In this document: positions 4,648-63,398 of the stretch, piece by piece
How positions within the stretch are numbered: the stretch's first letter is position 1
Layout: every line of letters begins with the position of its first letter
DNA from: Phycisphaerales bacterium
GTDB lineage: Bacteria; Planctomycetota; Phycisphaerae; Phycisphaerales; UBA1924
Direction of reading: 5' to 3'
Assembly: GCA_044221735.1 (NCBI GenBank)
Contig: JBGAOP010000005.1
Location: 43,608-107,607 of the forward strand
Length of the DNA stretch: 64,000 bases
The notes under the pieces: generated by a model
What the model was told of the DNA's origin: nothing
The model's input: the letters and a program-made list of their open reading frames with translations, nothing else
The model's database searches: none
Translations under genes and position numbers: made by a program

Positions 4648-5049
4648 ATGACGCCCGAACACGCGACTCCGGCCGGCACACCCACGGGGAAGCCCCAGGG
4701 TTCGGCCGCGCCCCCCACTTCCGTGCCGGGATCGCCGTCCGATCCGCGGGTCCTCGCGGCGGAGCAGGTCCGGGCGGTGGCGAAGCTCTCTCGATTGGCG
4801 ATCGGGGAGGATCGCGTGCAGCAGCTTCGCGGCGAGTTGTCGGCCGTGCTGGCGTACATGGATCAGCTGCGCGAGGTGGATGTGACGGGGGTGGAGCCCA
4901 TGACGCACCCGACGGAGCTTTCGAACCGGCTCGACGAGGATCGGCCGGGCGGGACCGCGATCTCCACCGAGGCGTTCATGGCCTTTGCGCCGGAAAGCCT
5001 GCCGCCATTTGTGAAGGTGCCGCCGGTGATGGGCGAGGGGAGCGCGTGA
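4648..5049 (+). CDS. gatC: Asp-tRNA(Asn)/Glu-tRNA(Gln) amidotransferase subunit C
   Basis: Typical GatC core 'VRAVAKLSRLAIGEDRVQQLRGELSAVLAYMDQLREVDVTGVEPMTHP...NRLDEDRP', preceded by a ~30-aa Pro-rich N-extension. Confidence 0.85.
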   Translation: MTPEHATPAGTPTGKPQGSAAPPTSVPGSPSDPRVLAAEQVRAVAKLSRLAIGEDRVQQLRGELSAVLAYMDQLREVDVTGVEPMTHPTELSNRLDEDRPGGTAISTEAFMAFAPESLPPFVKVPPVMGEGSA

Positions 5050-7831: not shown

Positions 7832-10582
7832 TTATGGGCAGCCGAAGAACCAGGCGTTCAGGTAATCGAAGATGTCCTGGACGGTCAGGCCGCCCTGGCC
7901 GTTGAAGTCGCTCCGGGGGTCGCCGGCGAACCACAGGTTGAGGAAGGCAAAGATGTCGGCGACGGCGATGCTGCCGCTGGCGTCAACGTCGATGTTGCCG
8001 CGCGAGCCGGGGAAGCTGGTCGGGTCGCCGGGATTGGCGCACGACGCGAGTTCGTCGCCGTCGAGGTATCCATCGCCGTCGCGGTCGATGCCCATGCGGA
8101 GCTGGGCCCCGGCGGGAACGACGGTGAAGGTGATCTCGGAGCCGGCGGCCGCGCTGGTGCGGAGGTCGGTGACGGTGCTGTGGGGCTCGGCGGCCCGGTC
8201 GGACTGCATGTCGCCGACGGCGGTGAAGTACCACCCGCGGGAGACGCCGGCGCGCCGGCCGCGGGCGATGATGCCCACGGTGCCGGAGTTGGCGAGGGAG
8301 ACGAAGGTGCCGAGCTTGGAGACCAGCGTGGCATCGGTGTTGTTGGTGCCGTCGAACGTGATCTGCTGGCCGACGGCGGGGTGGGTGTCGCCGGGGAAGC
8401 AGAGGAGGAAGGCCTCGAGGTCGTGCTTCTGCTGCTCGCCGGCCGCGCCGGGCTGGAGCGAGAAGTTCGATCCGCCGAGGTGGGCGAAGATCGTCTCGAA
8501 CTCGCTGTCGTGGTTGATGCCGAAGCCCCGGATGGACTGCTGGCTGGACTTGTCGAACGTGGGCTTGCGGTACAGGCCGCGAAGTTGGGCCATCTTCATG
8601 GACTGCGGGGCGTTGGCGGTATTGGCGTCGTCGATCTTGCCATTGGTGCCGGTGGTGACGGTGTGGCAGGTGGTGCACTTGAACGCGCCGATGACGGGCG
8701 TGTTCTGGAAGATGTTGAGTCCGTTTGAGGGGCTGCCCGTGGTGTTGCCCAGCGTGGGGAGTGTCGCGGGCATGGAGTCGACGATGGTGCGGTTGGGGTT
8801 GGGCGGGTACTTGATGCTGGCGATGAAGCTGGTGAACTGGGCCAGCTCCGTGGCGGTGGGCTCGGCGTCCATGCCCTGCAGGCCGGTGAACGCCGGGCCA
8901 AACGCGGCGACGTTTTCGCGGTCGCCGCGCCAGTGGAGCGGCTCGGACCCCACGATGCCCTGGAGCGACTGGGTGACCATCGGGCCCTTCATGGGGTGCC
9001 ACGGGGCGCAGAAGAAGAACGTGCTGAAGCAGGTGCCGTTGACATTCTTCATGGCGCCGGCGGGGCTGCCGAGGTCCCACGCGAGGAAGTCGGCCTTGCC
9101 GTCGAGATGGCAGGATGCGCACGAGGCTTGGCCGAGGCCGCTGGTGCGGTGGGTGTCGTAGAGGAACGGACGGCCAAGCTTGATGGAGGAGGGCGTGGGG
9201 TCGAAGAAGCGGACGCGGGCCGTCTCGGTGTTCGTGGAGGTGTCGATCGCGGAGACCGAACCGTCAAACTTGTTGAGGCTGAACAGGCGGGAGCCGTCGG
9301 CGGTGAGCGCCAGACCGGTCGGGCCGCCGTTGCCGCCGATGTTCACCTCGCCGAAGCGCGAGCCGGTGGAATCCGTGACGATGACGTTGTTCGAGCCCAT
9401 GCCCGCGACATACGCGCGGCCGCTGGTGGGATGCCAGACGATGGCGCGCGGATCGCCGATGGACAAGTTGCGGAACCCCTGCGGGAGGCTGGCGACGTCG
9501 TAGAGCAGGTGGGGGTTGAGATCGACAACGCTCGTGCCCGTCGGCGCGACCGGATTGAACGCGCCCATCTCCACGCGGACGAACTTGGCTTTCACGATCG
9601 GCTCGAAGCGGACCTCGTTGCGGGCGTCGAGGCCCACGGGCGTGACAACGCCGTCGGGGCGAATGCCGAGCGCCATGACGGTGCTGAGCATGCCCTTGGC
9701 GTAGGTGACGGCAAGCGTTGAGGCGTCGATGATCGCCACGTCGTTATCGGCGAGGTTCCACGTGACGAACGAAGACCAGTTGCGGTTGTTGTCGTCCATC
9801 CACGCGCCGGCCGCGTTGCGGCGGACGATCTGTGCCACCTGCGGCGGCGTCGGCAGACCGGCGGCGAGGGGCGGGTTGAAGGCGGTGCCGCTGTTGGGCG
9901 GCGGGTTCTGTCCGCCGTAGGGGCCGGCGGCGTTGCTCACGTCCTGACGCTTGACGATGGTGGTCTGGTTGCCGGAGCCGAAGATGCCGACGTAGACCTT
10001 CGAGCCGTCGGCGCTGGCGAGCAGCGTGCGCGGGTCGGAGCCGGCGATGGCGATCGTCGTCGGCGCGGCCGCGAGATTGCTGACTGTGTAGACCTTGACC
10101 TGGTTCAGCGCAGCGCACGTGACGAAGGCGCGGCCCGAGGCGAACGCGACGTCTGCCGGCTCATCGCCCGGGAAGAGCGTGCGCACGATGTGCGAGGTTG
10201 GGAGATCGATGATGGAGACCGAGTCGGAGATCTGGTTCACCACCCACGCCTCGGTCTCGGTCCGGCACTTCACACTGACAGGATCGATGCCGACGCCGAT
10301 GGAGCGGAGCAGGCGCGGCGTGGAGGCGTACGCGCCCGTGACATCGAAGACCTCAAGGCGCGAGTCGGCCGTGTTCACGGCCAGCAGCGTGGAGCCCGAG
10401 GGTGTAAGGGCCAGCGGCGAGACATGGGCGGATTCCCAGTTCACAAACCCGGGCTGGGCGTGCGCGACCGAGACCGGGATAAACGGGAGCGCGGCCGCGG
10501 ACATGATCGCCACCAGGGGCGCAGCGACAGCCAGTCTTGAGTGTGGAACGCGGACCATGTCCATGCGGAGATCATGCCCCAT
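7832..10582 (-). CDS. secreted beta-propeller (YVTN/lactonase-like) + di-heme cytochrome c peroxidase-like protein with GC-terminated dockerin-like tag
   Basis: Signal peptide ...MVRVPHSRLAVAAPLVAIMSAAALPFIPVSVAHAQ (start ambiguous: 10582, 10564 or 10558). Two CxxCH motifs ('SCASCHLDGKADF', 'KCTTCHTV'). C-terminus '...IAVADIFAFLNLWFAGDPRSDFNGQGGLTVQDIFDYLNAWFFGCP*'. Confidence 0.85.
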   Translation of the reverse strand: MGHDLRMDMVRVPHSRLAVAAPLVAIMSAAALPFIPVSVAHAQPGFVNWESAHVSPLALTPSGSTLLAVNTADSRLEVFDVTGAYASTPRLLRSIGVGIDPVSVKCRTETEAWVVNQISDSVSIIDLPTSHIVRTLFPGDEPADVAFASGRAFVTCAALNQVKVYTVSNLAAAPTTIAIAGSDPRTLLASADGSKVYVGIFGSGNQTTIVKRQDVSNAAGPYGGQNPPPNSGTAFNPPLAAGLPTPPQVAQIVRRNAAGAWMDDNNRNWSSFVTWNLADNDVAIIDASTLAVTYAKGMLSTVMALGIRPDGVVTPVGLDARNEVRFEPIVKAKFVRVEMGAFNPVAPTGTSVVDLNPHLLYDVASLPQGFRNLSIGDPRAIVWHPTSGRAYVAGMGSNNVIVTDSTGSRFGEVNIGGNGGPTGLALTADGSRLFSLNKFDGSVSAIDTSTNTETARVRFFDPTPSSIKLGRPFLYDTHRTSGLGQASCASCHLDGKADFLAWDLGSPAGAMKNVNGTCFSTFFFCAPWHPMKGPMVTQSLQGIVGSEPLHWRGDRENVAAFGPAFTGLQGMDAEPTATELAQFTSFIASIKYPPNPNRTIVDSMPATLPTLGNTTGSPSNGLNIFQNTPVIGAFKCTTCHTVTTGTNGKIDDANTANAPQSMKMAQLRGLYRKPTFDKSSQQSIRGFGINHDSEFETIFAHLGGSNFSLQPGAAGEQQKHDLEAFLLCFPGDTHPAVGQQITFDGTNNTDATLVSKLGTFVSLANSGTVGIIARGRRAGVSRGWYFTAVGDMQSDRAAEPHSTVTDLRTSAAAGSEITFTVVPAGAQLRMGIDRDGDGYLDGDELASCANPGDPTSFPGSRGNIDVDASGSIAVADIFAFLNLWFAGDPRSDFNGQGGLTVQDIFDYLNAWFFGCP

Positions 10583-10675
10583 GGGCCCGTCCGTGCCACT
10601 CTCCGGGAAATCGTGGGGGCGTTCGGGGCACGAATTGTGCCAATAACACAGTGGAACCATGGGTGATACCGGGGG

Positions 10676-46943: not shown

Positions 46944-46975
46944 GTACCCTTTGGGCAGTTTCGTTGGAGAATGCG

Positions 46976-50447: not shown

Positions 50448-53400
50448 TTAGTTGCAGCCGCCGGCGAACCAGGAGTTGAGGAAGTCGAAGATGTTCTGGA
50501 CCGCGAGGGTGCCGGTAGCGCCGTCGCCGCCGACGATCGCCGCCTTCTTGCCGGCGAACCAGTCGTTGAGGAAGTCGAAGATGTCCTGCACTTCAAGCTG
50601 CGTGTTGTGGTTGTAGTTGGCGTAGCAGCAGGGGCTGGTGATGTTGCCCAGCGTGCCGGGGACCGTCACCGGCGTGTTGCAGACCGTGGAGGTAGCGACG
50701 AACTTGGCCTGAGCGCCGACCGCGACGGTGTCGAGGGCGGCCGAGCAGGCCGCGGCATCGGCGAAGCCGGTGGCGCAGGTAGAGCCGCGGCAGCACACGC
50801 CCGAGGGCTGCGGGCAGGTGTTGGGGGTGCAGGTGCCGTTGACGACCAGGGTGCCCGTGGCGCAGGTCGCGCTGGGGTTGCCCGGGGTGGCGACGGTGCA
50901 GCTGCCGTTGGTCTGGCAGCAGACGCCAACCTGGTTGCAGGGGTTGGGCGTGCAGGTGCCGCCGGTGGTCCAGGTGCCGCCCGTGCAGGCGGACTGGATG
51001 ACGGTGGTGCACGTGGTGCCCACGCAGCAGACGCCGGTCGGGAAGAAGGTCGTGTTGACCGTGTTCCAGCCGCCGCCCGGGGTGAGACCGTACTGGGCGA
51101 TCATGACCTTGATCGTGGTGCCCGCGGTGGGGATGTTGACGTTGACGTCATACGGCTCGGGATCATCGAAGCAGCCGATCGACGTCAGCGCGTTGCAGGT
51201 GCCGGTGAAGATGGCCATGATCATGTCGTAGGTGCCGTAGTTGTCGACCTTGATGTTGAGGGTACCGGCGGCGGGGGCCGTGAAGGTGTACCAGATGGAG
51301 TTCTGGGCGCCGCCCGCGGTCTGATCGTTGCAGGTGCCGATCGGGAGGCCCTCGTTGGCCGCGCCCTCGGAGCCGACGTTGTTGGTGTAGGTGGGCGAGG
51401 TGATGGTGGCCGCGTTGGCGCAGTCATCGTTGACGGGCGTCTGCGTGAGGCAGGTGGGCGACGCGCAGGTCGTGTCGGCGCCGTTCCAGGTTCCGGTCAC
51501 GCCGGTGCAGAAGGACTGAAGCGTGACGAAGCACGTGCCGCTGCCGGGGAAGCAGCACGAGCCCGGGGGGCACTGCGTGGCCGGGGCCGCGCAGGTGCTG
51601 TTGACGCCGCCGTAGACGGCGGGGGAGGGGCAGCCCGCGGCGGAGGTGACGACGAAGCAGACAGCGCCGATGTCGCAGCAGGCGCCCGTGCCGGCGGGCT
51701 GGGTGACGACGATCGAGAAGGTGCTGTTATCGCCGGGGAAGCCGCCGGCGCGGATCAGGTAGGTCGTGCCGCTGACGAGCGAGTCGAGCAGTTCCGTGGT
51801 GACGCCGTTGGCCGCGCGGCCGACGCAGTCAAGATCGGTATCAACCGCCGGATCGCAGGCGCCGGTGAACAGGGCGATGGCGACGCCCCAGTCGCTGGGC
51901 GTGGCCGGGGTGACGGTGATGGAGTAGTTGCCGGTAACGGCCGGGGTGAAGTTGTACCAGACGTCAACCGTGGAGCCCGAGCAGCTCGTCAGGTCCGTGC
52001 CGGTGGCCGTGCCGATGTGGCCGGTGACCGCTGTGCCCACCGTGAGGGCGGTGCCGGGGCAAGCGTCGTTGGGCGGAGCCGTGCAGATGCCCTGCGTGGT
52101 GCAGGTGGAGCCCAGGTTCATGAACGTGCCGGTGCAGCCGGCCGCGGTCGTCTGGGTGCAGGCGAAGTTGGTCGTGTCGCAGCAAGCACCGACGCACGGC
52201 GGGGTGGTTGCCGAGCAGGTCGTGCCGTCACCCTGGTAGCCCGCCGCGGGGCAGCTCGCCGTGCCGCTGGGGCCGGTGATGAAGCAGGACGGACCGCTGC
52301 AGCACGCGCCGCTCGGGCACGGATTCGTCGGCGTGCAGACGGTCAGACCGCCGGGAGCCGGCGTGTTGAAGCCCGCCGGGGCGCCGGTGTAGACGCACTG
52401 GCCGATGTTGTTGGAGATCACGCAGCCGCCATTGCTGGGGTTGCAGCAGGCGATGGTGGTCACCGTGTCGGCGCGGATGCTGAACTTGGTCGTCGCCGGG
52501 CTGAAGTAAGCGACGCGGACGTAGTAGGACGTGCTGCCCGTGCTGGTGAAGATCGCGGTGCGCGGGTTGGTGAAGTCGGTGCAGACCAGTTCGCTGCCGC
52601 CCGCCGCGGGGCAGAAGCCGTCATACACGGACACGGCCAGGGACTGCATGGTGAAGTCGCCGGCGCTGGCCTCCGGGGTCGCGGTGATCTGGTACTGAAC
52701 GCCGGTCGTGGCCGGGGTCGTGAGCAGGTACCACACGTCGGTGGTGGTGAAGCTGCAGGGCGTGACGACCGTCTGCGTGGCCGACACAAGAACCTGGCCC
52801 GTCAGCGTCGCGCCGCCGGGGGTGATCGTGAAGGCGGTGAGGTCGCCCGAGCACTCGTCGTTGGCCGGGGCCGGGAGCTGCGAACAGGTGATACCGGTGC
52901 ATGTCGTGCCCGTCTGGAGCACCTGGGTGCCCGGGCACGTGGTCGCGCCCGCGATCACGGTGCACACGCCGGTGGTGTTGTTGCAGCAGACGATCGTGTT
53001 GCAGGGGTCGCCGGTGCAGGTCGTGAGGCCCGTCAGTGCGGTGCCGCCGGACTTGGCGCAGTTGGCCGCGCCGTCCGCCACGAAGCAGACCGCCGCGGCG
53101 GTGCCGGGCACGCAGCAGGCGATGGGGGTGGTCGCCGCGACCGGGTGGCCGAGGACCTTGATGTAGTACGAACCGTTGTTGGGCGAGGCGAGGCCGAAGG
53201 GGCCGCGCTCAACGGGGGTGAGGTCGGTGTCGTACCGCCAGTAGTAGTTGAAGCTGGTGTCGGGGCCCGTGCCGGCGCGCCAGCCGAGCATCACGGTGGG
53301 GCCCGTGGCGACGTCCTGGTCGGAGATGCCGATGGCGAAGGAGCCGCCGCCGGCGTTGAGGTACGCGAAGCCCATATTCAGCGGGACGTTCTCCATGCCC

Positions 53401-53975
53401 GCGATCGGATTCACGCCGTCGCCGACGGTGAGAACGGTGAACACGCTCGCGCCCGTGGGGTTGGCGAGGGTCGGCACCGTGCCGACGAGCACGGGCGGGG
53501 TGTCGATCTCGTTGGTGCCCCACGTCGCGGGGTTGATGTCCAGGGGGGTCCACCAGATCTTGACGTTGCCCGCGAGGGCGCCGGCCTTGATGTGAACGCC
53601 GACCTGCACCTGGCAGACGCTGATCATCTGGGTCGTGATGCCGCCGACCTGCAGACGCGTGCCGGGGATGTTCACGTCGTCCATGAGCACGTCGCCCTGA
53701 ACGCCGGTGCCGCTCACGCCGCCAAGGCCGGAAGCGACGGTAAAGGTGCCGAGGGTGGTGCGGTCATAGAGCGTGGTGCCGCCGCGCGGCTGGAACGGGC
53801 CGGGCAGTACGGGCGGCGCGATCATGCGCATCGGGCCGACCAACGGAAGCTGATACTCGGCGGATGTCGCATCCACGGTCTGCGCGCTGGCCACGGCCGC
53901 GAGCGAAAGGCCGGCCGTGATGGCCGCGCCAGCGATCGCTCGGCGACACTGTGCACCGGAACGGAAAACGCTCAT
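50448..53975 (-). CDS. giant secreted Cys-rich mosaic protein, paralog A (N-domain + 10 six-Cys 'CC' modules + 3 'NDxC...DVWY' beta-sandwich-like domains + GC-terminated dockerin-like tag)
   Basis: ATG at 53975 preceded by GAGGAGG (cagaggaggtttcgaATG). Signal peptide MSVFRSGAQCRRAIAGAAITAGLSLAAVASAQ. C-terminus '...LEVQDIFDFLNDWFAGKKAAIVGGDGATGTLAVQNIFDFLNSWFAGGCN*'. The antisense 1257-aa ORF is a shadow. Confidence 0.85.
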   Translation of the reverse strand: MSVFRSGAQCRRAIAGAAITAGLSLAAVASAQTVDATSAEYQLPLVGPMRMIAPPVLPGPFQPRGGTTLYDRTTLGTFTVASGLGGVSGTGVQGDVLMDDVNIPGTRLQVGGITTQMISVCQVQVGVHIKAGALAGNVKIWWTPLDINPATWGTNEIDTPPVLVGTVPTLANPTGASVFTVLTVGDGVNPIAGMENVPLNMGFAYLNAGGGSFAIGISDQDVATGPTVMLGWRAGTGPDTSFNYYWRYDTDLTPVERGPFGLASPNNGSYYIKVLGHPVAATTPIACCVPGTAAAVCFVADGAANCAKSGGTALTGLTTCTGDPCNTIVCCNNTTGVCTVIAGATTCPGTQVLQTGTTCTGITCSQLPAPANDECSGDLTAFTITPGGATLTGQVLVSATQTVVTPCSFTTTDVWYLLTTPATTGVQYQITATPEASAGDFTMQSLAVSVYDGFCPAAGGSELVCTDFTNPRTAIFTSTGSTSYYVRVAYFSPATTKFSIRADTVTTIACCNPSNGGCVISNNIGQCVYTGAPAGFNTPAPGGLTVCTPTNPCPSGACCSGPSCFITGPSGTASCPAAGYQGDGTTCSATTPPCVGACCDTTNFACTQTTAAGCTGTFMNLGSTCTTQGICTAPPNDACPGTALTVGTAVTGHIGTATGTDLTSCSGSTVDVWYNFTPAVTGNYSITVTPATPSDWGVAIALFTGACDPAVDTDLDCVGRAANGVTTELLDSLVSGTTYLIRAGGFPGDNSTFSIVVTQPAGTGACCDIGAVCFVVTSAAGCPSPAVYGGVNSTCAAPATQCPPGSCCFPGSGTCFVTLQSFCTGVTGTWNGADTTCASPTCLTQTPVNDDCANAATITSPTYTNNVGSEGAANEGLPIGTCNDQTAGGAQNSIWYTFTAPAAGTLNIKVDNYGTYDMIMAIFTGTCNALTSIGCFDDPEPYDVNVNIPTAGTTIKVMIAQYGLTPGGGWNTVNTTFFPTGVCCVGTTCTTVIQSACTGGTWTTGGTCTPNPCNQVGVCCQTNGSCTVATPGNPSATCATGTLVVNGTCTPNTCPQPSGVCCRGSTCATGFADAAACSAALDTVAVGAQAKFVATSTVCNTPVTVPGTLGNITSPCCYANYNHNTQLEVQDIFDFLNDWFAGKKAAIVGGDGATGTLAVQNIFDFLNSWFAGGCN

Positions 53976-54257
53976 TCGAAACCTCCTCTGTGCGCGCCAT
54001 CTTGGGTCGCGCAAATGAATGCCCGGCGTGAACGGGCACGCTGCTGCGCTCTTCCCGACTCGGATTCGAGCGGTTCACCAGCGGCGCCACAAGCGCCGAG
54101 AGCGCATCGCCCAATGTACTTCGAGTTCGCAGGAATCCAACATGGGCGCGCGGAATCGAGCACGCGAGACAAAAGGTGCGCGAAAACCCTTCAGTGTTTT
54201 TACTGACATTGATTCGTGGCGCGGGAAAATCAACAGGGAAATCCCGCAAACACAACG

Positions 54258-54287
54258 AAAAACCCCCGTCATGAGACGGGGGTTTTT
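54258..54287. terminator. bidirectional rho-independent terminator downstream of paralog B
   Basis: aaaaacccccgtc-atga-gacgggggttttt: a 9-bp G/C-rich stem flanked by an A-run and a T-run, 29 nt after the stop of the 54316..57750 gene. Confidence 0.75.
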
Positions 54288-54315
54288 GTTGAGAGGGTTT
54301 TCCAGTATGTTTCGA

Positions 54316-57300
54316 CTAGTGGCAGCCAGCGAGCCAGTCGTTGATGAAGTCGAAGATGTTCTGCACGGCCAGTGGGCCCGAGGTGCCGTTGCCGCCGGTG
54401 TTCGCGAAGATCGAGCCGGCGAGCCAGTCGTTGATGAAGTCAAAGATGTCCTGAACCTCGATGCCGTTGACTTTGTTGTAGTCGGCGTGGCAGCAGCCCG
54501 CGATGGTCGTGCCCGTGCAGGTGCTCGAGGCGGTCTGGAAGAACGCTCCGGCGAGTGTGCCGGTGGTGGTGCAGTTGGCCTGCGTGACGGCTGCGTTGCA
54601 CGTGGCGCCGCGGCAGCAGATGCCCGTGGCCACCGGGCAGGTGTTGACGGTGCAGGTGCCGCCGCTGGTCCACGTGCCCGTGCACAGGGCCTGGGTCGTC
54701 ACGGTGCACGCGCCGGAGATGCAGCACTGGCCGGTGAGCGAGAAGGTGGTGTTCACCGTGAGCCAGCCGCCGCCTGGATTGAGGCCCCACTGGGCGATCA
54801 TGAACTTCACGTTCGCGCCGACGGGCATGTTGACGTTGATGTCGTAGGGCTCGGGATCATCGACGCAGCCGATCTCGGTCAGCGTGCCGCACGCGCCCGT
54901 GAACACGCCCATGACCATGTCGTAGGTGCCGTAGTTGTCGGCCTTGATGTTGAGCACGCCCGCGGCCGGCGCGGTGAAGGTGTACCAGACGGAGTTCTGC
55001 GCGCCCGCGGCGGTCTGGTCGTTGCACGCGCTGATGGGCAGACCCTCGTTGGCCGCGCCGTCGGTGCCGGTGTTGTCGGTGAACGTGGGCGATGTGACGA
55101 CCGTGGCGGTGGAGCAGTCGTCGTTGGGGGGCGTCTGTGCGACGCAGTTGGTGGTGGCGCAGGCCTGATCGCCCGCGTTCCAGACGCCGGTGACGCCGGT
55201 GCAGAATGTCTGGATGGTCACGAAGCACTGCCCGCTGCGCGGGAAGCAGCACGAGCCCGCCGGGCACTGGGTGGCCGGCGCGGCACAGGTCGTGTTCACG
55301 CCGCGGTAGACGGCGGGTGCGGGGCAATCGGCCGCGGCGGCGACGATGAGGCACGCCGCGCCGATGTCGCAGCACGCGCCCAGGCCCGCGGGCTGGGAGA
55401 CAAGGATGGAGAAGTTGCCGGTATCGCCGGCGAAGGCGCCCACGCGGATGAGCACGGGCGTGCCGGCGATGAGGGTGTCGAGGAGCTCGCTGGTGCCGCC
55501 GACCGCCGCCTGCGGGATGCAGTCGATGTCGGTGTCAACAGTGGGATCGCACGTGCCGGTGAAGATCGCCAGGCCCGTGCCGACGTCGGTGGCCGAGGCG
55601 GGCGTGGTCTTGATGCTGTAGTTGCCGGTGGTCGTTGGGGTGAAGGTGTACCAGACGTCGACGGTGGAGCCCGAGCAGGACGTCAGGTCTGTGCCGGTGG
55701 CGGAGTTGACGGTGCCGTTGACGGCCGTGCCGAGGGTGAGCGCGACGGCCGCGGAGCACTGGTCGTTGGGCGGGCCGGGGCAGATGCCCTGGGTGGTGCA
55801 GGCCGAGCCGCCACCGCCATAGGTGCCGCCAGCCGCGGTGCAATCGCCGTCGCTGTTGATGGTGCAGGCAAAGCCGGTGGGGCGGCAGCAGGCGCCTTGG
55901 CAGAGGTTGGGGGTGCAGGTTCCGCCAAGGGTAAAGCTGGCGGCGGGGCAGCCGGTCTGGCCGGTAATGCTGCAGACACCGTTGGCAGCGCAGCACGCGC
56001 CGCGCGGGCAGGCCGTCGGGGTGCAGGTGGTTCCGGGTCCCTGCGAGTCGGTGTACCCCGGCTGGGTGGTGCAGCCCACCGCGGTGGTGGACGCGACGCA
56101 GAGGCCGTTGGTCGGATTGCAGCACGCGATGGTCGTAATCTGCGAGATGGAGATGTTGAACTTCGTCGTGCCCGGAGTGAAGTACGCGACGCGGATGTAG
56201 TAGGAAAGCGATCCGTTGGCCTGGAAGGTCGCCACGCGCGGATTCGAGAAGTCGGTGCAGACCAGCTCACCGCCGACGGCGCCGGGGCATCCCGGGCCGC
56301 CGTCGTACACGGCGATCGAGAGCGGCTGGAGCGTGTAATCACCGGACGTTGCCTGCGGTGTCGCGACGATCTGGAACTGGCCGGTCGACTGCGCGGCCGT
56401 GGCGGTGAAGAGGTACCACACGTCGGTGTCGGCAAAGGTGCACGCGGGAGAGGCGCCGGCGCCGAACGACGGTGTGGCACCCACGATCGTCTGGTCGATC
56501 CGGGTCGGATTGCCGGGGATGGTCAGCTCATAGGCGGAGCCGACTGTGGCGGCGGAGCATTCGTCGTTGCCGGGGGCCGGCAGCTGCGTGCAGGTGATGC
56601 CCGTGCAGGAGGTCGCGCCGGCCTGGAGCACTTGTGTGCCCGGGCACGCGGCCTGGCCCGCGATCACCGAGCACACGCCAGTGGTGTTGTTGCAGCAGGT
56701 GATCGTCGCGCAGGTGGCCGCGCCGCACGTGGTCTGGCCGGCGATGGCGTTGCCGCCGGACGCGGCACAGTTGGCCGTTCCGTCGGCAACGAAGCACACG
56801 GAGCCCGCCGTTGCCGGGAGGCAGCACGCGATCGGGGCCACGGCCGCGATCGGCGTTCCCTTGATGATGACATAGAAGGACGACGCGGCGGGCGTGCACG
56901 GTTGCGGGGCGCACCCGAACGCGAAGGGGCCCGTCTCCGGACCCACCGGGCAATCGGGCTGTGCCGGCACGGGGCCGAGATCGGAGTCATAGACCCAGAA
57001 GAAGTTGCCGTTGGCGTCGGGGCCCGTGGTGATTCGCCAGCCGCCGATGTTGGCGTCGTCGGGACGCATGATCTGCGCGCCGATGGCAAATGTGCCGAAC
57101 GTGGCGGGGCCGGTTCCCTGCAGATACGTCATGTTCAGCGGGATCGCGTTCATGCCGGCGATCGGGTTCACGCCATCGCCGATGGTCACGATCTTCGTGC
57201 TGCTGGCCGCCGCGGTGGGAATCGTCACCGTTCCGATGAGATGCATCGGAGTGTCCACCGCGGTGTCTGGAGCGGTCGTGTTGCTGGTGAGGCTTGCCCA

Positions 57301-57750
57301 GTACAGATTGACATCGACCGGCGCCGCGCCCACGAAGGTGTAGATGCCCACCGTCACCTGGCACACGCTAATCATCTGCGTGGCGGTGCCGTTGACTTGG
57401 AGGCGGGCCACGGGAATCGGCACATCCTCAACAAAGATGTCGGGCTGGGTGCCTGCGCCGTCGGGGCATCCGCCGTAGCCGAAGTTGCCGGTGATATTGC
57501 CGGAAAGCGTGTTCCGGTTGTACAGCGTCACCGAGCCGCGCGGCGTGAAGGGGCCGGGCACCGTCGGCGGCTCGGGAAGTCGCATGAAGGGCGACTCGAC
57601 AAACTGCCGGTGGTGCGCGGGAATCGCCGCGGGCTCGGCCGGGGGTTCGGCCAGAACCGTCGCGGCCATCGATGCGAGGAACAGGGCGGCCAGCGCCGTC
57701 CAGGCGAACCTGCTCTCAGTCCGCCACGCGAAGTTGTTACAACCGCTCAT
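54316..57750 (-). CDS. giant secreted Cys-rich mosaic protein, paralog B (same architecture as paralog A)
   Basis: ATG at 57750 in the same context (ttgaggaggtttcgaATG). Signal-like 'FAWTALAALFLASMAATVLA'. Collinear with paralog A. C-terminus '...IEVQDIFDFINDWLAGSIFANTGGNGTSGPLAVQNIFDFINDWLAGCH*'. Confidence 0.85.
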   Translation of the reverse strand: MSGCNNFAWRTESRFAWTALAALFLASMAATVLAEPPAEPAAIPAHHRQFVESPFMRLPEPPTVPGPFTPRGSVTLYNRNTLSGNITGNFGYGGCPDGAGTQPDIFVEDVPIPVARLQVNGTATQMISVCQVTVGIYTFVGAAPVDVNLYWASLTSNTTAPDTAVDTPMHLIGTVTIPTAAASSTKIVTIGDGVNPIAGMNAIPLNMTYLQGTGPATFGTFAIGAQIMRPDDANIGGWRITTGPDANGNFFWVYDSDLGPVPAQPDCPVGPETGPFAFGCAPQPCTPAASSFYVIIKGTPIAAVAPIACCLPATAGSVCFVADGTANCAASGGNAIAGQTTCGAATCATITCCNNTTGVCSVIAGQAACPGTQVLQAGATSCTGITCTQLPAPGNDECSAATVGSAYELTIPGNPTRIDQTIVGATPSFGAGASPACTFADTDVWYLFTATAAQSTGQFQIVATPQATSGDYTLQPLSIAVYDGGPGCPGAVGGELVCTDFSNPRVATFQANGSLSYYIRVAYFTPGTTKFNISISQITTIACCNPTNGLCVASTTAVGCTTQPGYTDSQGPGTTCTPTACPRGACCAANGVCSITGQTGCPAASFTLGGTCTPNLCQGACCRPTGFACTINSDGDCTAAGGTYGGGGSACTTQGICPGPPNDQCSAAVALTLGTAVNGTVNSATGTDLTSCSGSTVDVWYTFTPTTTGNYSIKTTPASATDVGTGLAIFTGTCDPTVDTDIDCIPQAAVGGTSELLDTLIAGTPVLIRVGAFAGDTGNFSILVSQPAGLGACCDIGAACLIVAAAADCPAPAVYRGVNTTCAAPATQCPAGSCCFPRSGQCFVTIQTFCTGVTGVWNAGDQACATTNCVAQTPPNDDCSTATVVTSPTFTDNTGTDGAANEGLPISACNDQTAAGAQNSVWYTFTAPAAGVLNIKADNYGTYDMVMGVFTGACGTLTEIGCVDDPEPYDINVNMPVGANVKFMIAQWGLNPGGGWLTVNTTFSLTGQCCISGACTVTTQALCTGTWTSGGTCTVNTCPVATGICCRGATCNAAVTQANCTTTGTLAGAFFQTASSTCTGTTIAGCCHADYNKVNGIEVQDIFDFINDWLAGSIFANTGGNGTSGPLAVQNIFDFINDWLAGCH

Positions 57751-58186
57751 TCGAAACCTCCTCAATCGCGCGGCGTGTGCGGCCGCGCTTCCCGCCCCGG
57801 TTGACCGTCTTTTCTCGGTTACTTGGACACCATGACCAACGAACCCGGGCTGACTTTGTGGAGCCGTGCAGACATTGCGCGGATTCCTCGGTGAAATTAC
57901 CACAAACCAAACATTCAGGCAATACCCTTATTTTCAGATTGGTCCAATGCGCAAATTTATCCGTGGTAACCCCGACGGTTGCTATCCGTCCCTCCGGATC
58001 AAGGGGTTGCGAAGTTGGGATGAAACCGAGGCGGCGAACTCCGGGCGCAAATCCCGCCGGAAAGAAGGCTGGGTGAACGATTCGGGCCGCACAGCGCTCG
58101 TGCCGGCGCGAAATCGATTGCAGCCGGCCAGGCTCGCCTTCCAGAAGAACTATGTCGCACCGGGCCTGCCGCGCGGCGGTGTGGGA

Positions 58187-59575
58187 TCAGCAGCCGGCAA
58201 ACCAGCGGTTCAGGAACTCGAAGATGTCCTGAACTTCCAGCACCCCGCTGGCGTCAGCGTCGGCGCTGGACAGGCCCGCGAGCCAGTCGTTGATGAACTG
58301 AAAGATGTCCTCGACTTGGACCCGCCCGTTCTCGTCCTGATCGGCCGCGCAGTACGAGATCGTCGCGACGTACGCAAACGTGAGGCCGGTGGCGATGGTG
58401 GTGGCGGTGCCGGTGATGGTGCGGCCGTCATAAGTGATGGCCGTGGCGGTGTCGAGGCGGACGCCCTCGGGCACGCGGCCGTCGAGCCGATCGGCGAGGC
58501 GAGACATGCCCCAGCGCGGCGTCCAGACGAAGGCCTCGGTCACCCCGCCGGCGGAAAGCGTGCCGGAGGTTTGGCTGTCGCCCACGATAATGGTTCCATC
58601 GGCGCTGACGCCGAAGGCCTCGGAAGTTTGCGCGCCGGATGAAGGGAGCGCGCCGAGCGAGCGCGTGCCAGCGGGCGTCGAACGGAACGCAACAGCCTGC
58701 GGAATCGCGAATCCCAGCGAGGAGTCGGTCAGATCCGGGCTGGTGATGGCGCCGACGATCACGTTCCCGGAAGTGTTTACGCCGCTCGCGATGCCAAAGC
58801 CATCCGGTGCGTGGGCGATCGCGGGGATCTGCACGGTCGTGCCCGCGCCGCCGGTGTTCGTCCACTTGAAGGGCAGGCCGGCCGAGTCGCCGACAATCAC
58901 GATGGCGTTGTACGAAGAGGCCCGTGCGCTGGAGGCGCCGCTGCCCGGGAGCGCAGGGAGCATTGTGAAGCCGGTCCCGCCATTCCAGCGGAAGGCCTGA
59001 CCGACCGCGCTGGTGGCCGTCGTGCTCGAACCGAAGATCGTTCCGCCGTCGCCCGAGATGCCGTAGGCGAAACTGGTGCCGAGATTGCCGGGTGGCGAGC
59101 CCGCGATGCCGAGGGATGAGGGCGTGGACCCGAACCACATGAACGCACGGCTGCGGTTGCCGGTGTTCGCGCCGACCGTCACCGATTGGACGCTGTGGCC
59201 CACGGAGATCGCGCCATCGGCGCAGATGCCCGTGGCGTGCGATGAGAACGCCGCGGCGTTGAGCGCTCCGAACGCGCCGACGCCCCCGCCGAGCAGGTCG
59301 TAGCGAAACCCCTCCTCCAGCGCACCGCCCAGCGTGTTGGCGGAATCCGAATCACCAACGACATACTGCCCAAAGCCCGCGATGAACGCGGCGTTGTTGC
59401 CGCTCGCGCCACCCGTGAGGGTGGGGATCATTGTGAACGAGACCTGGGCCGAGGCGACACTCCCCCATCCACACCCCCCCACTCCCGCGCACGCCATCGC
59501 AACGCCAAGAGCCAGTGCACGAGCACAGGCGCCCGGGCGAGGCCCGAGAAAGAGCGAAGAATCGGCGTGGTGCAC
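58187..59575 (-). CDS. secreted HAF-family extracellular repeat protein with GC-terminated dockerin-like tag
   Basis: GTG start at 59575 with AAGGAG 7 nt upstream. Repeats of the type 'A.G.S.DG..IVG.S......AF.W' ('AYGISGDGGTIFGSS...QAFRW', 'AFGVSADGTIIVGDS...EAFVW'). C-terminus '...VQVEDIFQFINDWLAGLSSADADASGVLEVQDIFEFLNRWFAGC*'. Confidence 0.8.
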   Translation of the reverse strand: MHHADSSLFLGPRPGACARALALGVAMACAGVGGCGWGSVASAQVSFTMIPTLTGGASGNNAAFIAGFGQYVVGDSDSANTLGGALEEGFRYDLLGGGVGAFGALNAAAFSSHATGICADGAISVGHSVQSVTVGANTGNRSRAFMWFGSTPSSLGIAGSPPGNLGTSFAYGISGDGGTIFGSSTTATSAVGQAFRWNGGTGFTMLPALPGSGASSARASSYNAIVIVGDSAGLPFKWTNTGGAGTTVQIPAIAHAPDGFGIASGVNTSGNVIVGAITSPDLTDSSLGFAIPQAVAFRSTPAGTRSLGALPSSGAQTSEAFGVSADGTIIVGDSQTSGTLSAGGVTEAFVWTPRWGMSRLADRLDGRVPEGVRLDTATAITYDGRTITGTATTIATGLTFAYVATISYCAADQDENGRVQVEDIFQFINDWLAGLSSADADASGVLEVQDIFEFLNRWFAGC

Positions 59576-59637
59576 GGCGGGCTCCTTGCAAACGTACCAA
59601 GGCTACAGGCGGGCTCGATCGGCGTTGCGGCTGCCGA

Positions 59638-62600
59638 TCAACACCCGGCAAACCAGGCCGACAGGTAGGAGAAGATATCCGAGACCGCAAGTCCGGGAAT
59701 GCCGTCAAAGTCGGTCGAGGGGTCGCCGGCAAACCAGGCGCCCAGATAATCAAAGATGTCCTGCACGGTGAGACCGCCCACGCCGTTGAAATCAACGCGG
59801 CAGCGGAACTCGGCGGTGATCGTCTCGGCGGTGGAGACGGTGAACGAGCAGGGGCCCGTGCCCGAGCAGGGCCCGCCGCTCCAGCCGATGAACCGGGAGT
59901 TCTGCGCCGCAACAGCCGTGAGCGTGATTGGCGATCCGACGGCGAAGAGCCCGTCGCACGTTGCTCCGCAGTCGATGCCGCCGGGCGAGCTTGTGACCAC
60001 GCCGGTGCCGGAGCCGGTGGTGAGGATCGTGATCGCCACGGGCGGAAGCGGGCACGGGCTGGGCGTGCACGACACGCCGTCGCCCTGGTACGAGCCGGTG
60101 CACGATCCGGGCAGCACGACGGTGCAATCACCGTTGGAGACATTACAGCACGCGCCCGCCATGGAGACCGGGGGCGTGCACGTCGAGATGCTCTGGGGCG
60201 TGATGACCAGCGACCAGGCCCGCGCTGTGCCGGTGCCGCCGGAGACCACATCGGCCACGTTGAGCGTCCACGTGCCGGTGGGGTCCTCGCCGTTGAAGGC
60301 CGAGAGCGGGCTGGCCGGGCTGAAGGTGCCGGTGAAGGGTGCGCTCGACGCGGCGACAGTCTGGATGGACGTTGCGCCTGAATCGTCGAGGACGGTATTG
60401 CACAGGTTGTTGCCGCTGTTGCCGCCCGTCGCGCCGCCGCCGGTCATGCGATTGATGAGCGTGACGGTGGTGCCGAGCGGGCTGGTGAGCTTGACGATCA
60501 GTTGGCCGATGGTGCCGTGGTTGAGGCCGACGGTGGTCGACGTCGACGTCGTCGAGCAACTCGACCCGTCGAAGCGGAAGTTGAGGTCGGCGATCGTGCC
60601 CACGCCCGACACGGGGAGGAGCAGGTTGACGCCGGCGGCGGAGTTGTCGGTGATCGCCGTGGCCGCGCCGGTGTAGGAGATGGTGACGGGCGTGCTCGAG
60701 CTCGTCACGCCGGTGGGAAGCGCCACGGCCAGCGCGGCGGTGGCGCCGATGGTTCCACCCACGCCCTGGTCGCAGGACATGGTCAGGGTGAGGCTGATCG
60801 GGTTGCCGCACGGGTGCGTTGGCGACACGCTGAGCACGTAGTACGAGTCGTTGCTGCCGGTGGCGAGCGCGGCGAGTGTGGGGAAGGACGAGACGCCGGA
60901 CACGACCGTCACGGTGGGCGTGTTGGACGTCAGGGTGCCGCTCACGCCGGTGGCGGAAAGCGAGCCCGAGTTGGTCACGGGAATGGTCAGACGGATCTGG
61001 TTCTCGCCCGGATCGATGCGCCCGTTGGCGTTGCCGTTGCCCACAGTGTCGGCGAGCACGACCGAGCCGCCGAAGGCGAAGTTCACCGCCGGAATCGAGG
61101 GAACGATGGTGAAGTTGGCGTTGGAGATGTCAAAGAAGATGTTGCCCACGGCCTCGACCTTGATGCGGGCGGTGGTGGTGTTGATGTTGGGCAGGACGAT
61201 GTTCGCCGTGCCCGTGTTGGGCGTGCTCGCGGCAAGGACTGTGGGAAAGGTGTTGCCCCCGTCGGTGGACAACGAGATCTTCACGTTTGCGCAGCTCACG
61301 GGCGCGACGTTGGATCCGCCGAGCGCCCAGGTGAGCGTCTGCGGGCCGCTGTACGTTCCGGCGGTGTTGAGGCTGGTAATCTGGAACGGGCCGGTGCCGG
61401 CGATCTGGAGCGTGGTGGTGGCCTGGTTCACGCCGCCCCCGCCGGAGCGATTGTCGCGCACCGTGACGCGCCAGTTCATGGTGGTGCGGGCGACCTGCGG
61501 CAGGAGTTCCCAGGTGTCGGTCGTGTTGGCGAGGATAGTGGAGAGTTGCGGGACGGTACGCGAGGGGCTGGCCGTTCCCGGGCGTGAGCGGTCGATCGGG
61601 CCCGAGCCGGGATCGGTGCCCAGGGGCTGCACACTCGCGCCGTCCTGCTGCTCCCAGCAGTACGTGATCGGGTCGCCGTCGGGGTCTGTGGCCGAGGCCG
61701 TGAGCGTGAAGGGCGTCTTGGAGGGAATGGCGTACGCCGTGAGCGCGCCGATGGTCGGTGCGTTGTTGCCCGTCGCGGTCGTCGCGGCACAGGATGTGCC
61801 ACTCAGGTACGTGTTGATCTGGTTGATGTCGGTGCCGTTGAAGTACGGGTCGTTGTGGGCCTGCACGTTGTACGAGGCCCCACATATCCCGGCGTAGGAC
61901 ATGATGGTCGTGCCCGAGCCCGCCTCGACGAGGTACACGGCGCTGTCGCCGGCCGAGCCGCCGCAGTTGCTCTGCGTGTGGTGGCCGCCGAACTGGTGGC
62001 CAAGCTCGTGCGAGACGTAGTCGATCACGAAGTACGGGTCGTTGGGGTTGGAGTAGCCGCTGTACCCGGCCCCCTTGGTGGAAGCGCAGATGGTTCCGAT
62101 GCCGCCCGCGAGGCCGTTGTTGCCGGCGGTGGTGTAGTGGATGACGTGGCCCACGTCGTAGTTGGCGCTGCCGATCACCGAATCGAGCGCGGTCTGAAGG
62201 TTCGAGTTGGTCGTGCTCGCGTTGTTGGGCGAGGTGAAAGGATCGGTCGCGGAGTCGGTGTAGACGATCGCCGTTTCGTTGGCCACAAGCACGAAGCGGA
62301 CAGTCAGCTCGACCTCGTAGATGCCGTTGAGCTGGTTGGTGATGTTCGTCGCGAGTGTCAGCCCCGCCGCCGCGCCGCCCGCCCACACCGTCGTCTCGCC
62401 CGTGAGCGCCAGCGCGAGCCGGTACTGCCGGCGCGTGGGACCGGTGACGGAGCGCGGCTGGAACGGCGCGGCCTGAACGGCCGGCCCGTTGTCCACCGTG
62501 AGGCAGTTGAACGAGCGATCACGCTTGGGGCCGTCGGCGTGCCGGTACGACATGTGCAGCGATGTGTCGCCGCGCGAATAGGCGTCGATATGCCACATCC

Positions 62601-63102
62601 CCGAGTACGGGCCCGTGTCGCCGGACGTGCGCACCTGGGCCTGGAAGCCCACGGGCGTGAGGCTGCACCGGATGGTCGCGAACGGATCGTCGATGCCCTC
62701 GCCGCGATAGGTGCGTATCTCCGGGTGCGCGGCCGCGAGTGCGGGCTCCATCACCGAGTACTCAACAACCTTGAACCGCTGCCAGTGGCCGTCGGGGTCC
62801 GGCAGGGCGATCACGAGCGGATCGGTCTGGGCCCGACGTGTGTCCTCCAGCGGCGCGCCGGCGAGGACATCCCGCATGGCGCGAACATCGAGCGTCGCGG
62901 GCACACCGTGCGCCGGGCGCACCCATTCCTCGCGCTGGGCCGCGGCCGCGGGCACGCCGTCGAGGATGGACCACGGGCCGACCGCGTCGATCACCTGCTG
63001 CGCGGCGGCGGAAGCGGCCATGAGCGCGACGGCCGCGCCGGTGGTGAGAAGTGAGCGAATCAAGCGCCCGCACGTGCTGTTGTCAATCGAGAGGCTCGTC
63101 AT
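59638..63102 (-). CDS. secreted reprolysin-like (M12B/metzincin) zinc metalloprotease + proprotein-convertase P-domain + six-Cys module + InlB-B-repeat-like domain + GC-terminated dockerin-like tag
   Basis: ATG at 63102 with GAGGA upstream. Signal 'LLTTGAAVALMAASAAAQQ'. Zinc site 'HELGHQFGGHH' with Met-turn 'IMSY'. P-domain end 'GTWTLNVADVVSGGTGTARAWSLVI'. C-terminus '...LTVQDIFDYLGAWFAGDPSTDFDGIPGLAVSDIFSYLSAWFAGC*'. Confidence 0.88.
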   Translation of the reverse strand: MTSLSIDNSTCGRLIRSLLTTGAAVALMAASAAAQQVIDAVGPWSILDGVPAAAAQREEWVRPAHGVPATLDVRAMRDVLAGAPLEDTRRAQTDPLVIALPDPDGHWQRFKVVEYSVMEPALAAAHPEIRTYRGEGIDDPFATIRCSLTPVGFQAQVRTSGDTGPYSGMWHIDAYSRGDTSLHMSYRHADGPKRDRSFNCLTVDNGPAVQAAPFQPRSVTGPTRRQYRLALALTGETTVWAGGAAAGLTLATNITNQLNGIYEVELTVRFVLVANETAIVYTDSATDPFTSPNNASTTNSNLQTALDSVIGSANYDVGHVIHYTTAGNNGLAGGIGTICASTKGAGYSGYSNPNDPYFVIDYVSHELGHQFGGHHTQSNCGGSAGDSAVYLVEAGSGTTIMSYAGICGASYNVQAHNDPYFNGTDINQINTYLSGTSCAATTATGNNAPTIGALTAYAIPSKTPFTLTASATDPDGDPITYCWEQQDGASVQPLGTDPGSGPIDRSRPGTASPSRTVPQLSTILANTTDTWELLPQVARTTMNWRVTVRDNRSGGGGVNQATTTLQIAGTGPFQITSLNTAGTYSGPQTLTWALGGSNVAPVSCANVKISLSTDGGNTFPTVLAASTPNTGTANIVLPNINTTTARIKVEAVGNIFFDISNANFTIVPSIPAVNFAFGGSVVLADTVGNGNANGRIDPGENQIRLTIPVTNSGSLSATGVSGTLTSNTPTVTVVSGVSSFPTLAALATGSNDSYYVLSVSPTHPCGNPISLTLTMSCDQGVGGTIGATAALAVALPTGVTSSSTPVTISYTGAATAITDNSAAGVNLLLPVSGVGTIADLNFRFDGSSCSTTSTSTTVGLNHGTIGQLIVKLTSPLGTTVTLINRMTGGGATGGNSGNNLCNTVLDDSGATSIQTVAASSAPFTGTFSPASPLSAFNGEDPTGTWTLNVADVVSGGTGTARAWSLVITPQSISTCTPPVSMAGACCNVSNGDCTVVLPGSCTGSYQGDGVSCTPSPCPLPPVAITILTTGSGTGVVTSSPGGIDCGATCDGLFAVGSPITLTAVAAQNSRFIGWSGGPCSGTGPCSFTVSTAETITAEFRCRVDFNGVGGLTVQDIFDYLGAWFAGDPSTDFDGIPGLAVSDIFSYLSAWFAGC

Positions 63103-63398
63103 GGAATCCTCGTCTTTCAGGCGTCCCATAACCAGATCGGTGCGACGCCCACCCCTTCGCCCCATGCTCGAACATGCCACGGTGAAGCGTCGGAATGACA
63201 CAATCACCCAAGATGCACGCGAAGTGACGCGGCACCAACAACTCGCATCCAGAAACGGATGGAATGCTCCACGATACGAGTTGCGCGGATTGAGTGTTCC
63301 GAGGACATGAAGCGGAGCAGCGGCCCGCTAATGGCCACGTATGGCCGAGGAACTTAGGCGGATTGCCCATCTCGCCGCGTGCGCGCGAGCGCCAGGGT

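Follow-up and report, generated by a model that had tools for sequence, protein, structure and literature searches.

Six predicted secreted proteins with a common C-terminal tag

The DNA considered here is a stretch of 64,000 nucleotides from a Phycisphaerales bacterium (assembly GCA_044221735.1, contig JBGAOP010000005.1, positions 43,608 to 107,607 of the forward strand), which in its full length is called the window and within which all positions are counted. Six open reading frames (ORFs) of the window encode predicted secreted proteins ending in the same duplicated loop-helix unit followed by a nearly terminal Cys, a tag that corresponds to the curated NCBIfam family NF041540 (dockerin_GC, GC-type dockerin domain-anchored protein). 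Four of these ORFs are consecutive on the minus strand in 50448-63207 and are 1188, 1195, 462, and 1189 aa long, and two further minus-strand ORFs with the same ending are located at a distance, at 7832-10660 and 3704-4681. The tagged genes and their tags are as follows.

59638..63207, minus strand: M12B/reprolysin-like zinc metalloprotease, predicted secreted; 1189-aa ORF with a probable start at 63102 (Pfam and NF041540)
59641..59802, minus strand: tag of the protease, CRVDFNGVGGLTVQDIFDYLGAWFAGDPSTDFDGIPGLAVSDIFSYLSAWFAGC (motif search and sequence; modelled by AlphaFold2)
58187..59575, minus strand: HAF-repeat protein of 462 aa, predicted secreted, with GC-type tag (TIGR02913 and NF041540)
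58190..58351, minus strand: tag of the HAF protein, CAADQDENGRVQVEDIFQFINDWLAGLSSADADASGVLEVQDIFEFLNRWFAGC (motif search and sequence)
54316..57903, minus strand: Cys-rich mosaic protein B with 75 Cys and a variant tag; 1195-aa ORF with a probable start at about 57750
54319..54492, minus strand: variant tag of Cys-rich protein B, CHADYNKVNGIEVQDIFDFINDWLAGSIFANTGGNGTSGPLAVQNIFDFINDWLAGCH, in which the linker is extended and the second loop, with Asn at its position 12, is degenerate
50448..54014, minus strand: Cys-rich mosaic protein A with 76 Cys and a variant tag; 1188-aa ORF with a probable start at about 53975
50451..50627, minus strand: variant tag of Cys-rich protein A, CYANYNHNTQLEVQDIFDFLNDWFAGKKAAIVGGDGATGTLAVQNIFDFLNSWFAGGCN (motif search and sequence)
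7832..10660, minus strand: beta-propeller/di-haem-peroxidase-like protein, predicted secreted, with GC-type tag; probable start at 10582 (TIGR02276, E 6.5e-15)
7835..7999, minus strand: tag of the propeller protein, with no Cys at position -14 (sequence)
3704..4681, minus strand: small protein of unassigned fold, predicted secreted, with GC-type tag; probable start at 4531 (NF041540)
3707..3865, minus strand: tag of the small protein, CAGDFSGDGVLSVQDIFDFLNAWFAGSPGGDFNGGGLGVNDIFDFLNAWFAGC (motif search and sequence)

The protease, whose start at 63102 matches an NCBI gene call (P0295, 1154 aa), possesses by Pfam a Reprolysin_4/M12B domain (E 2.4e-29) with the zinc motif HELGHQFGGHH, a proprotein-convertase P-domain (P_proprotein, E 7.5e-11), and a Flg_new_2 match (E 6e-5), together with a PKD-like region, one six-Cys module, an InlB B-repeat-like domain, and the GC-type tag. 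The HAF protein matches TIGR02913 at 30.7 bits (cutoff 22.65), and an identical sequence is present in the NCBI and Logan collections. Cys-rich proteins A and B are paralogues with 52% identity, each of which contains at least nine six-Cys modules and galactose-binding-like domains (PF23759; E 5.3e-20 in A and 2.9e-17 in B, by Pfam). The propeller protein contains beta-propeller repeats and a weak match to di-haem peroxidase (CCP_MauG), and the small protein at 3704-4681 has no Pfam match. These Pfam and TIGR results agree with the cargo descriptions given in an initial annotation of the sequence, which had listed a metzincin, a HAF protein, a Cys-rich pair, a propeller/di-haem protein, and a small protein without assignment. 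All six N-termini were read by eye as Sec signal peptides, with a basic stretch, a hydrophobic stretch, and an AxA-type site.

A six-frame search of the window with a regular expression for the helix of the tag, [DN]-[IVL]-[FLY]-x-[FYW]-[ILVF]-x2-[WF]-[FLM]-x-G, returned 12 matches, which form six pairs that each lie 1-3 residues before a stop codon; no match was found in 200 shuffles of the window. The C-terminal endings (WFAGGCN, WLAGCH, WFAGC, WFAGC, WFFGCP, and WFAGC) are exactly those quoted in the initial annotation, which had described six ORFs ending in two motif copies and a near-terminal Cys. The family name suggested there also proved to be right, because NF041540 (cutoff 29 bits) hits every one of the six ORFs and exceeds its cutoff in four (58187-59575, 40.1 bits; 59638-63207, 30.9 bits; 7832-10660, 40.1 bits; and 3704-4681, 38.5 bits). 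The two Cys-rich paralogues lie below it, at 18.7 bits (E 0.0017) for A and 17.1 bits (E 0.0054) for B; nonetheless, the motif in their tags is unmistakable by eye and represents a variant subtype of the pattern CC[YH]A[DN]YN...VQDIFDFLxDWFAG, a longer linker of 10-14 aa, and VQNIFDFLxxWFAG(G)C. The second loop of this subtype is degenerate, with Asn at loop position 12, and the subtype accounts for 12 of the 432 sequences examined. Its AlphaFold2 model, built from 10 sequences with a pLDDT of 68, shows the same two helices in a topology consistent with the main tag, which is weak evidence. The window tags share with NF041540 the C-terminal position, the duplicated unit, and the Gly-Cys ending with which the profile closes (G54 94%, C55 96%), and membership of the six ORFs in this family is practically certain.

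The window feature thus belongs to an already curated family, of which it presents an ordinary set of members, and a literature search by name and accession found no paper on the GC-type dockerin or NF041540. Three points are added here: how large the family is and how narrow its taxonomic range, its continuity, on one shared cargo, with Pfam-positive dockerins, and the pair of conserved Cys bracketing the module.

Architecture and predicted fold of the module

The module comprises the last 53-60 residues of each of the six ORFs, in the order Cys, two residues, a 12-residue calcium-type loop, an amphipathic helix (D-I-F-D-F-L-N-A-W-F-A-G), a 4-residue linker, a second loop, a second helix, and Cys. 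The loop consensus is D1, N/D3, S/D/N5, G6, a hydrophobic residue at 8, and an invariant D12, and the columns of the profile, calculated from 456 domain hits, include D5 (89%), N/D7 (95%), G10 (78%), D16 (100%), D32 (86%), and D43 (94%). Loop position 12 is Asp, not Glu, in 100% of the first loops and 94% of the second. In the AlphaFold2 model of the protease tag (pLDDT 91.3), helices are formed by residues 19-30 and 46-58, and there is no entering helix; the module is predicted to be a compact two-helix mini-domain, the nearest solved relatives of which would be the dockerins.

Tags with three or four repeats also occur in database relatives (P0121, P0125, P0126, P0127, P0136, and P0138). They have a single Cys pair at their outer ends and do not fit the simple two-fold symmetric picture of a dockerin.

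Relationship to dockerins

The tag contains two tandem 12-residue calcium-type loops with a helix after each, which is the pattern of a dockerin segment, across the 456 domain hits. Type I dockerins (PF00404; 1OHZ_B, 2VN5_B, and 6KGE_D) similarly possess two "F-hand" segments, each a 12-residue calcium loop (Asp at position 12) with a helix behind it, are C-terminal on exported enzymes, and provide the best structural match to the AlphaFold model. In a Foldseek comparison of the model with 350,542 PDB chains, dockerins 6kge_D, 2ozn_B, 2vn5_B, and 4dh2_B took four of the top six places (ranks 1, 2, 5, and 6), with a TM of 0.56-0.58 and an rmsd of 2.5-3.0 Å over 50-59 columns, figures that carry a ranking only because the E-values are not significant; calmodulins reached a TM of only 0.3. 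In contrast to type I dockerins, which have a period of approximately 33 residues and helices rich in L, K, and R, the GC-type tag has a period of 27 residues, almost no middle helix, aromatic helices (IFDFLNAWFAG), and a conserved Cys pair that brackets the module; it has no PF00404 match, and only its loop aligns with dockerins by hhalign.

The strongest argument for dockerin kinship comes from a comparison of the tails found on one cargo, that of the protease. Of its 120 best homologues, 26 end in a GC-type tail, 32 in another duplicated loop-helix tail with a final Cys, and 16 in other Cys-ending tails. Two non-GC tail types pass the Dockerin_1 gathering score, at 23.7 and 25.1 bits. Pfam-positive tails on homologous M12B/P-domain proteases from other Planctomycetota (for example P0313 '...DQDDIDALAQVVAGGPCP' and P0317 '...SDLGLLLQNWTNVCP') share with the GC type the cargo, the position, and the duplicated loop-helix, and they likewise open with a Cys ahead of the first loop and finish in Cys or Cys-Pro, whereas their helix sequences differ and they reach the Dockerin_1 gathering score, as the GC type does not. 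GC-type tails on the protease homologues score 60-98 bits with the hidden Markov model (HMM) of the tag, and intermediate tails, for example CPADINNDGSVDGDDVIVFFAAWD...FFADWDSGC, score 24-39 bits with the tag HMM and 15-17 bits with Dockerin_1. The series is therefore graded, with no single tail above both thresholds. The most classical of these Cys-terminated dockerin tails escape detection by the tag HMM, and a classical-like dockerin, P0286, shows no direct link to it (-0.5 bits).

In 25 of the same 120 homologues, a different shared tail was found, '...[RQ]FYR[VIL]xxxP', the named sources of which are mostly Verrucomicrobiota. Its carriers (P0352, P0360-P0364, P0369-P0374, and others) look as if they had another lineage-specific tag on the same cargo.

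Other results weigh against a dockerin and thereby against the functional reading developed below. Pfam Dockerin_1 (PF00404) matched neither the six whole ORFs (E<=0.01) nor the isolated tags (E<=10), a search of the PDB with the 125-sequence tag profile retrieved no dockerin, and the hhalign alignment with dockerins 1OHZ_B and 4FL4_A was confined to the calcium loop (15 columns, P=0.003, probability 10%). The Foldseek E-values were 3-7 for dockerins and 3-9 for all matches, none of them significant. The dockerin resemblance proposed in the initial annotation is thus borne out by the loop pattern and the Foldseek ranking and not by Dockerin_1, the PDB profile search, or the E-values. Of the two sequence-based signs that, taken together, this annotation would have regarded as contradicting its reading, a failure to match dockerin profiles was indeed observed for Dockerin_1, whereas the other, a lack of cargo diversity in relatives, is clearly contradicted. 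A dockerin-type calcium-loop fold is considered quite likely. The GC type, as judged from sequence comparison, may be a divergent, lineage-specific branch of Planctomycetota-wide Cys-bracketed dockerins that falls outside formal PF00404 membership.

An ordinary EF-hand pair was also considered and rejected, since EF-hand_6, EF-hand_1, and EF-hand_7 gave 15-18 bits against cutoffs of 25-30, position 12 is Asp, and the model has no helix before the loops.

The two conserved cysteines

In addition to the near-terminal Cys, five of the six window tags have a second Cys, located three residues ahead of the first loop and 14 ahead of the first DIF; the propeller tag (7835-7999) is the only one without it, and its nearest upstream Cys is found in ELASCANPGD. 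Across the 456 domain hits, the opening Cys2 is present in 92% (99% of the non-gap positions) and the closing Cys55 in 96%. In proteins with two independent tags, the internal copies, which have 40-140 residues downstream, keep both Cys in 10 of 10 cases, and modules of three or four repeats have Cys at two places only, ahead of the first loop and behind the last helix. Among the loop-helix tails on protease homologues, Pfam-positive dockerin tails included, 57 of 58 have a Cys 40-75 residues upstream of the last Cys.

When the two repeats are aligned with each other, position 2 (Cys) corresponds to 29, Ala4 to Ala31, D5 to D32, G27 to G54, and 28 to 55 (Cys). Because this pseudo-two-fold symmetry puts the two Cys at the places of the chain neighbours 28 and 29, we infer that they form an intramodule disulfide, an assignment that conservation and symmetry make likely. 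The second conserved Cys, the internal copies, and the placement at the outer ends together indicate that the terminal Cys is most likely half of a structural disulfide, and the near-terminal Cys is probably not a site of lipidation, cleavage, or intermolecular cross-linking. The initial annotation overlooked the second Cys, which favours an intramodule disulfide, and the roles that it offered for the terminal one (disulfide anchoring, lipidation, or cleavage) are probably all wrong.

Additional Cys occupy profile position 1 in 126 sequences and position 8 in 57, but never both at once; their presumed partners lie in Cys-rich modules further upstream.

Size, distribution, and modularity of the family

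At E<=1e-3, a profile built from 125 tags matched 12,208 sequences, each representing a cluster at 50% identity, and at E<=1e-10 it still matched 4,553. The matched proteins are 70-1746 aa long and carry the match at the C-terminus. A scan of one genome per species yielded at least 447 confirmed stretches, and of the best 79 loci, 78 are from metagenome-assembled genomes (MAGs) labelled Phycisphaerales, Phycisphaeraceae, or Planctomycetota and one from a genome labelled Ardenticatenaceae. The best genome loci and the window were combined into a set of 81 loci with 1.24 Mb and 15,460 ORFs. In this Phycisphaerales DNA, the tag HMM identified 170 tagged ORFs, with the tag no more than two residues from the stop in 166, and one MAG alone contributed 32 tagged ORFs within the 234 kb sampled. 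After removal of the tags, 164 cargos fell into 71 BLAST clusters, including 49 singletons, and 69 cluster representatives matched 39 Pfam families, among them FG-GAP, RCC1, Kelch, and GSDH propellers, M1 and S8 peptidases, di-haem peroxidase, peptidyl-arginine deiminase, PA14, and Ig domains. The expectation of the initial annotation that the tag would behave in relatives as an independent module on unrelated cargo was therefore confirmed.

Tagged genes are adjacent to each other in 45 pairs (40 on the same strand), compared with approximately 27 expected from random placement within the loci. A tagged HAF gene and a tagged M12B gene are adjacent in two other MAGs, in inverted order at L002:6266-12836 and in the same order at L006:4450-10165, which suggests a functional pair. 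On sequence grounds, the GC-type family could be the Phycisphaerales-specific branch of wider Cys-bracketed, dockerin-like C-terminal modules of Planctomycetota and relatives.

GC-type tags were also observed on contigs binned outside Planctomycetota, namely L029 (CAYXUZ010000080.1, labelled Ardenticatenaceae, Chloroflexota) and P0090 (labelled Rugosimonospora sp., Actinomycetota). L029 contains three tagged ORFs and, with 67% GC, resembles Phycisphaerales loci in base composition; these tags could be due to mis-binning or to horizontal transfer.

Proposed function and the search for a partner

A possible function was considered in the light of the planctosome proposed for Nemodlikiaceae (Phycisphaerae), an extracellular complex in which dockerin-cohesin pairs would hold together M12B reprolysin-like peptidases and P-domain proteins (Andrei et al. 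2019, PMC6461901). That model is itself a hypothesis, and its dockerins and cohesins, 0-6 in each genome, were identified with dbCAN and InterProScan (PMC6461901). The window protease has exactly the Reprolysin_4, P-domain, and dockerin-like architecture that it describes. In contrast to the planctosome dockerins, the GC-type tag is invisible to Pfam and occurs in dozens per genome, and neither Pfam in the window nor a narrow clostridial HMM in the 81 loci revealed a cohesin.

The HAF cargo offers a second comparison. Its homologues in other lineages carry ends that are PEP-CTERM-like (P0290 and P0293), Por_Secre_tail-like (P0288), or classical-like dockerins ending in GQGC (P0286), so that tails resembling the PEP-CTERM type and the type IX secretion system (T9SS) type take the place of the GC-type tag. 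As with PEP-CTERM/exosortase signals and T9SS C-terminal domains (CTDs), the GC-type tag is a short portable C-terminal element found on many unrelated exported proteins per genome. Unlike these sorting tags, it is predicted to be a folded calcium-loop domain and is also found internally.

Based on the export signals combined with a portable C-terminal module, the dockerin kinship, the swapping of tails on HAF cargo, and the planctosome hypothesis, a docking function is proposed. The six proteins would be exported via Sec, each ending in a GC-type dockerin module. After export, the first and last Cys of the module would join as an intramodule disulfide and tie its ends together, and the near-terminal Cys would thus act as a structural staple. 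The closed module may serve, by analogy with dockerins, as a portable calcium-dependent handle for protein-protein docking, through which diverse exported enzymes and repeat proteins, dozens of them in each genome, could be kept on one common cell-surface partner encoded away from the tagged genes. This partner is probably encoded elsewhere or is not a recognisable cohesin. As an assignment by analogy, surface docking is evenly balanced between being and not being the function, and the entire chain of membership, fold, disulfide, and surface docking is slightly favoured overall. A further-reaching proposal is tentative and rather doubtful: the GC-type tags might be disulfide-cyclised mini-dockerins of a Phycisphaerales-wide surface display, in which each cell would have dozens of enzymes, M12B proteases among them, held by one conserved receptor that is not a recognisable cohesin, and this would constitute a new dockerin-receptor pairing and a basis for the planctosome.

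The docking function has to be set against several results. As the initial annotation had stated, the window has no recognisable cohesin gene (none by Pfam among 30 ORFs), and no cohesin was found in the 15,460 ORFs of the 81 loci (none below E 0.68), which represent approximately 2% of the relevant genomes and were searched with a narrow clostridial HMM that was derived from three verified CipA cohesins. Nor did these loci reveal a neighbour family peculiar to the tagged genes. The PEP-CTERM, Por_Secre_tail, and Dockerin_1 matches on the HAF homologues, though correctly positioned, are below their gathering scores. The Cys-parity of the mature tagged proteins (60 even and 64 odd after a crude signal-peptide cut) is uninformative.

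The recurrent untagged neighbours of the tagged genes are generic (ABC ATPase, histidine kinase, solute-binding protein, PheA, WD40 kinase, MarR, and LptF/G). The only recurrent neighbour of unassigned function is an untagged family of approximately 450 aa without a Pfam match, which was observed in six loci, including L019:5585-6958. In L019, it adjoins one of the tagged paralogues of approximately 1000 aa, and this is probably local synteny.

Alternative explanations

The module could dock to a target other than a cohesin, either by self-association (tag to tag, or tag to six-Cys module) or by binding a non-protein envelope polysaccharide or peptidoglycan. The lack of a cohesin match in the window and in 1.24 Mb of related loci favours this possibility, as do the unusually aromatic helices (I, F, F, L, W, and F per repeat), which are near-invariant over thousands of sequences, even at would-be surface positions, and the existence of tandem tags and of tags interleaved with six-Cys modules. 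However, the cohesin search was narrow and limited to about 2% of the relevant genomes, and cohesin and dockerin modules do co-occur in some Phycisphaerae (PMC6461901); a non-cohesin target is regarded as unlikely.

Alternatively, the tag may act as a secretion signal for an outer-membrane translocation machinery, as a T9SS CTD does, rather than in retention, and may be removed later. Its strictly C-terminal position on highly diverse Sec-exported cargo and the Por_Secre_tail-like end of one HAF homologue would fit such a role. The predicted fold, in contrast, is helical and based on calcium loops, unlike the beta-sandwich CTDs, complete internal copies of the tag exist 40-140 residues from the C-terminus, and no conserved processing or transport gene is encoded nearby in the 81 loci. 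T9SS is not known from Planctomycetes, which also counts against a secretion signal, and this explanation is improbable.

Two known sorting elements were examined directly and rejected. The tags are not PEP-CTERM substrates, as none of them has a PEP motif, a transmembrane helix, or a basic tail, and PF07589 matches none of the six proteins. Nor do they match the T9SS C-terminal domain, a beta-sandwich of approximately 80 aa (PF18962/TIGR04183), and the model of the tag is helical.

Still less probable is a direct functional role of the near-terminal Cys in lipidation, in a thioester or transpeptidase-type attachment, or in an intermolecular disulfide to a surface protein. In favour of such a role, this Cys is invariant at 0-2 residues from the C-terminus in the six ORFs and is present in 96% of the family members; however, the opening Cys of the module is conserved to the same degree, both Cys persist in the internal copies (10 of 10) and bracket modules of two, three, and four repeats, the tag sequence has no transmembrane segment, basic tail, or lipobox-like context, and no dedicated enzyme is encoded nearby in the 81 loci. 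Chance, low complexity, or an annotation artefact can be dismissed as the source of the shared ending in view of the 12 motif matches compared with none in 200 shuffles, the match to a curated HMM, and the 4,553 cluster representatives at E<=1e-10.

If the tags do act as docking handles, they would be relevant beyond this window. Phycisphaerales are abundant degraders in soils, waters, and wastewater, and a 55-residue handle on dozens of exported proteins per genome offers an entry point to the way in which these bacteria display enzymes on their unusual envelope. The partner, once found, would reveal an organising principle of the surface proteome and allow the planctosome idea to be tested. 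A very small, disulfide-closed, and calcium-switchable docking module could, if real, also become a part for protein engineering. Beside the non-cellulosomal dockerins, nothing in the window is surprising.

Gene arrangement and other features of the window

The four consecutive tagged ORFs had been described in the initial annotation as an island. Their adjacency holds; the term itself is too strong because base composition is uniform and a hairpin separates the two Cys-rich genes. The GC content across 50-63 kb is 0.66-0.70, the same as in the remaining window, and a horizontally acquired island was rejected for this reason. The hairpin is the following feature.

54258..54287, minus strand: strong terminator-like hairpin with a 13-bp stem containing 7 GC pairs, followed by a T-run, between the Cys-rich genes

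It lies 29 bp past the stop of the ORF at 54316-57903 and is followed by approximately 240 bp of non-coding DNA up to the next gene, and its position suggests that the four genes do not form one operon. The loci nearest to the window show about 76-80% nucleotide identity to it, over single genes only.

The six-Cys module of the Cys-rich proteins, CC-x(3-9)-C-x(7-9)-C-x(7-20)-C-x(3-6)-C, is approximately 32-44 aa long and has no Pfam match. Examples in the protein at 50448-54014 are residues 300-338, 343-377, and 523-566, and the protease at 59638-63207 has a single copy, ACCNVSNGDCTVVLPGSCTGSYQGDGVSCTPSPC. In the relatives P0122, P0124, and P0133, a six-Cys module lies between tandem GC-type tags, and tags that open with 'CC' resemble the start of this module.

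The other window ORFs with Pfam matches are ordinary and include S9 and M28 peptidases, trpF, tdk, GH57, rpoN, recR, comEC, a signal peptidase, rpiB, a ROK kinase, a GGDEF regulator, and others. An ORF of 791 aa at 46832-49207 on the plus strand, immediately upstream of the M28 peptidase gene and the cluster of tagged genes, has no Pfam match and contains a GDSL/SGNH-like 'VVGDSIASGN' near residue 590. Three minus-strand ORFs without Pfam matches, at 102-1184, 5053-5946, and 5943-6854, have signal-peptide-like N-termini and a charged, helix-prone sequence, and two of them are located between the two distant tagged genes.

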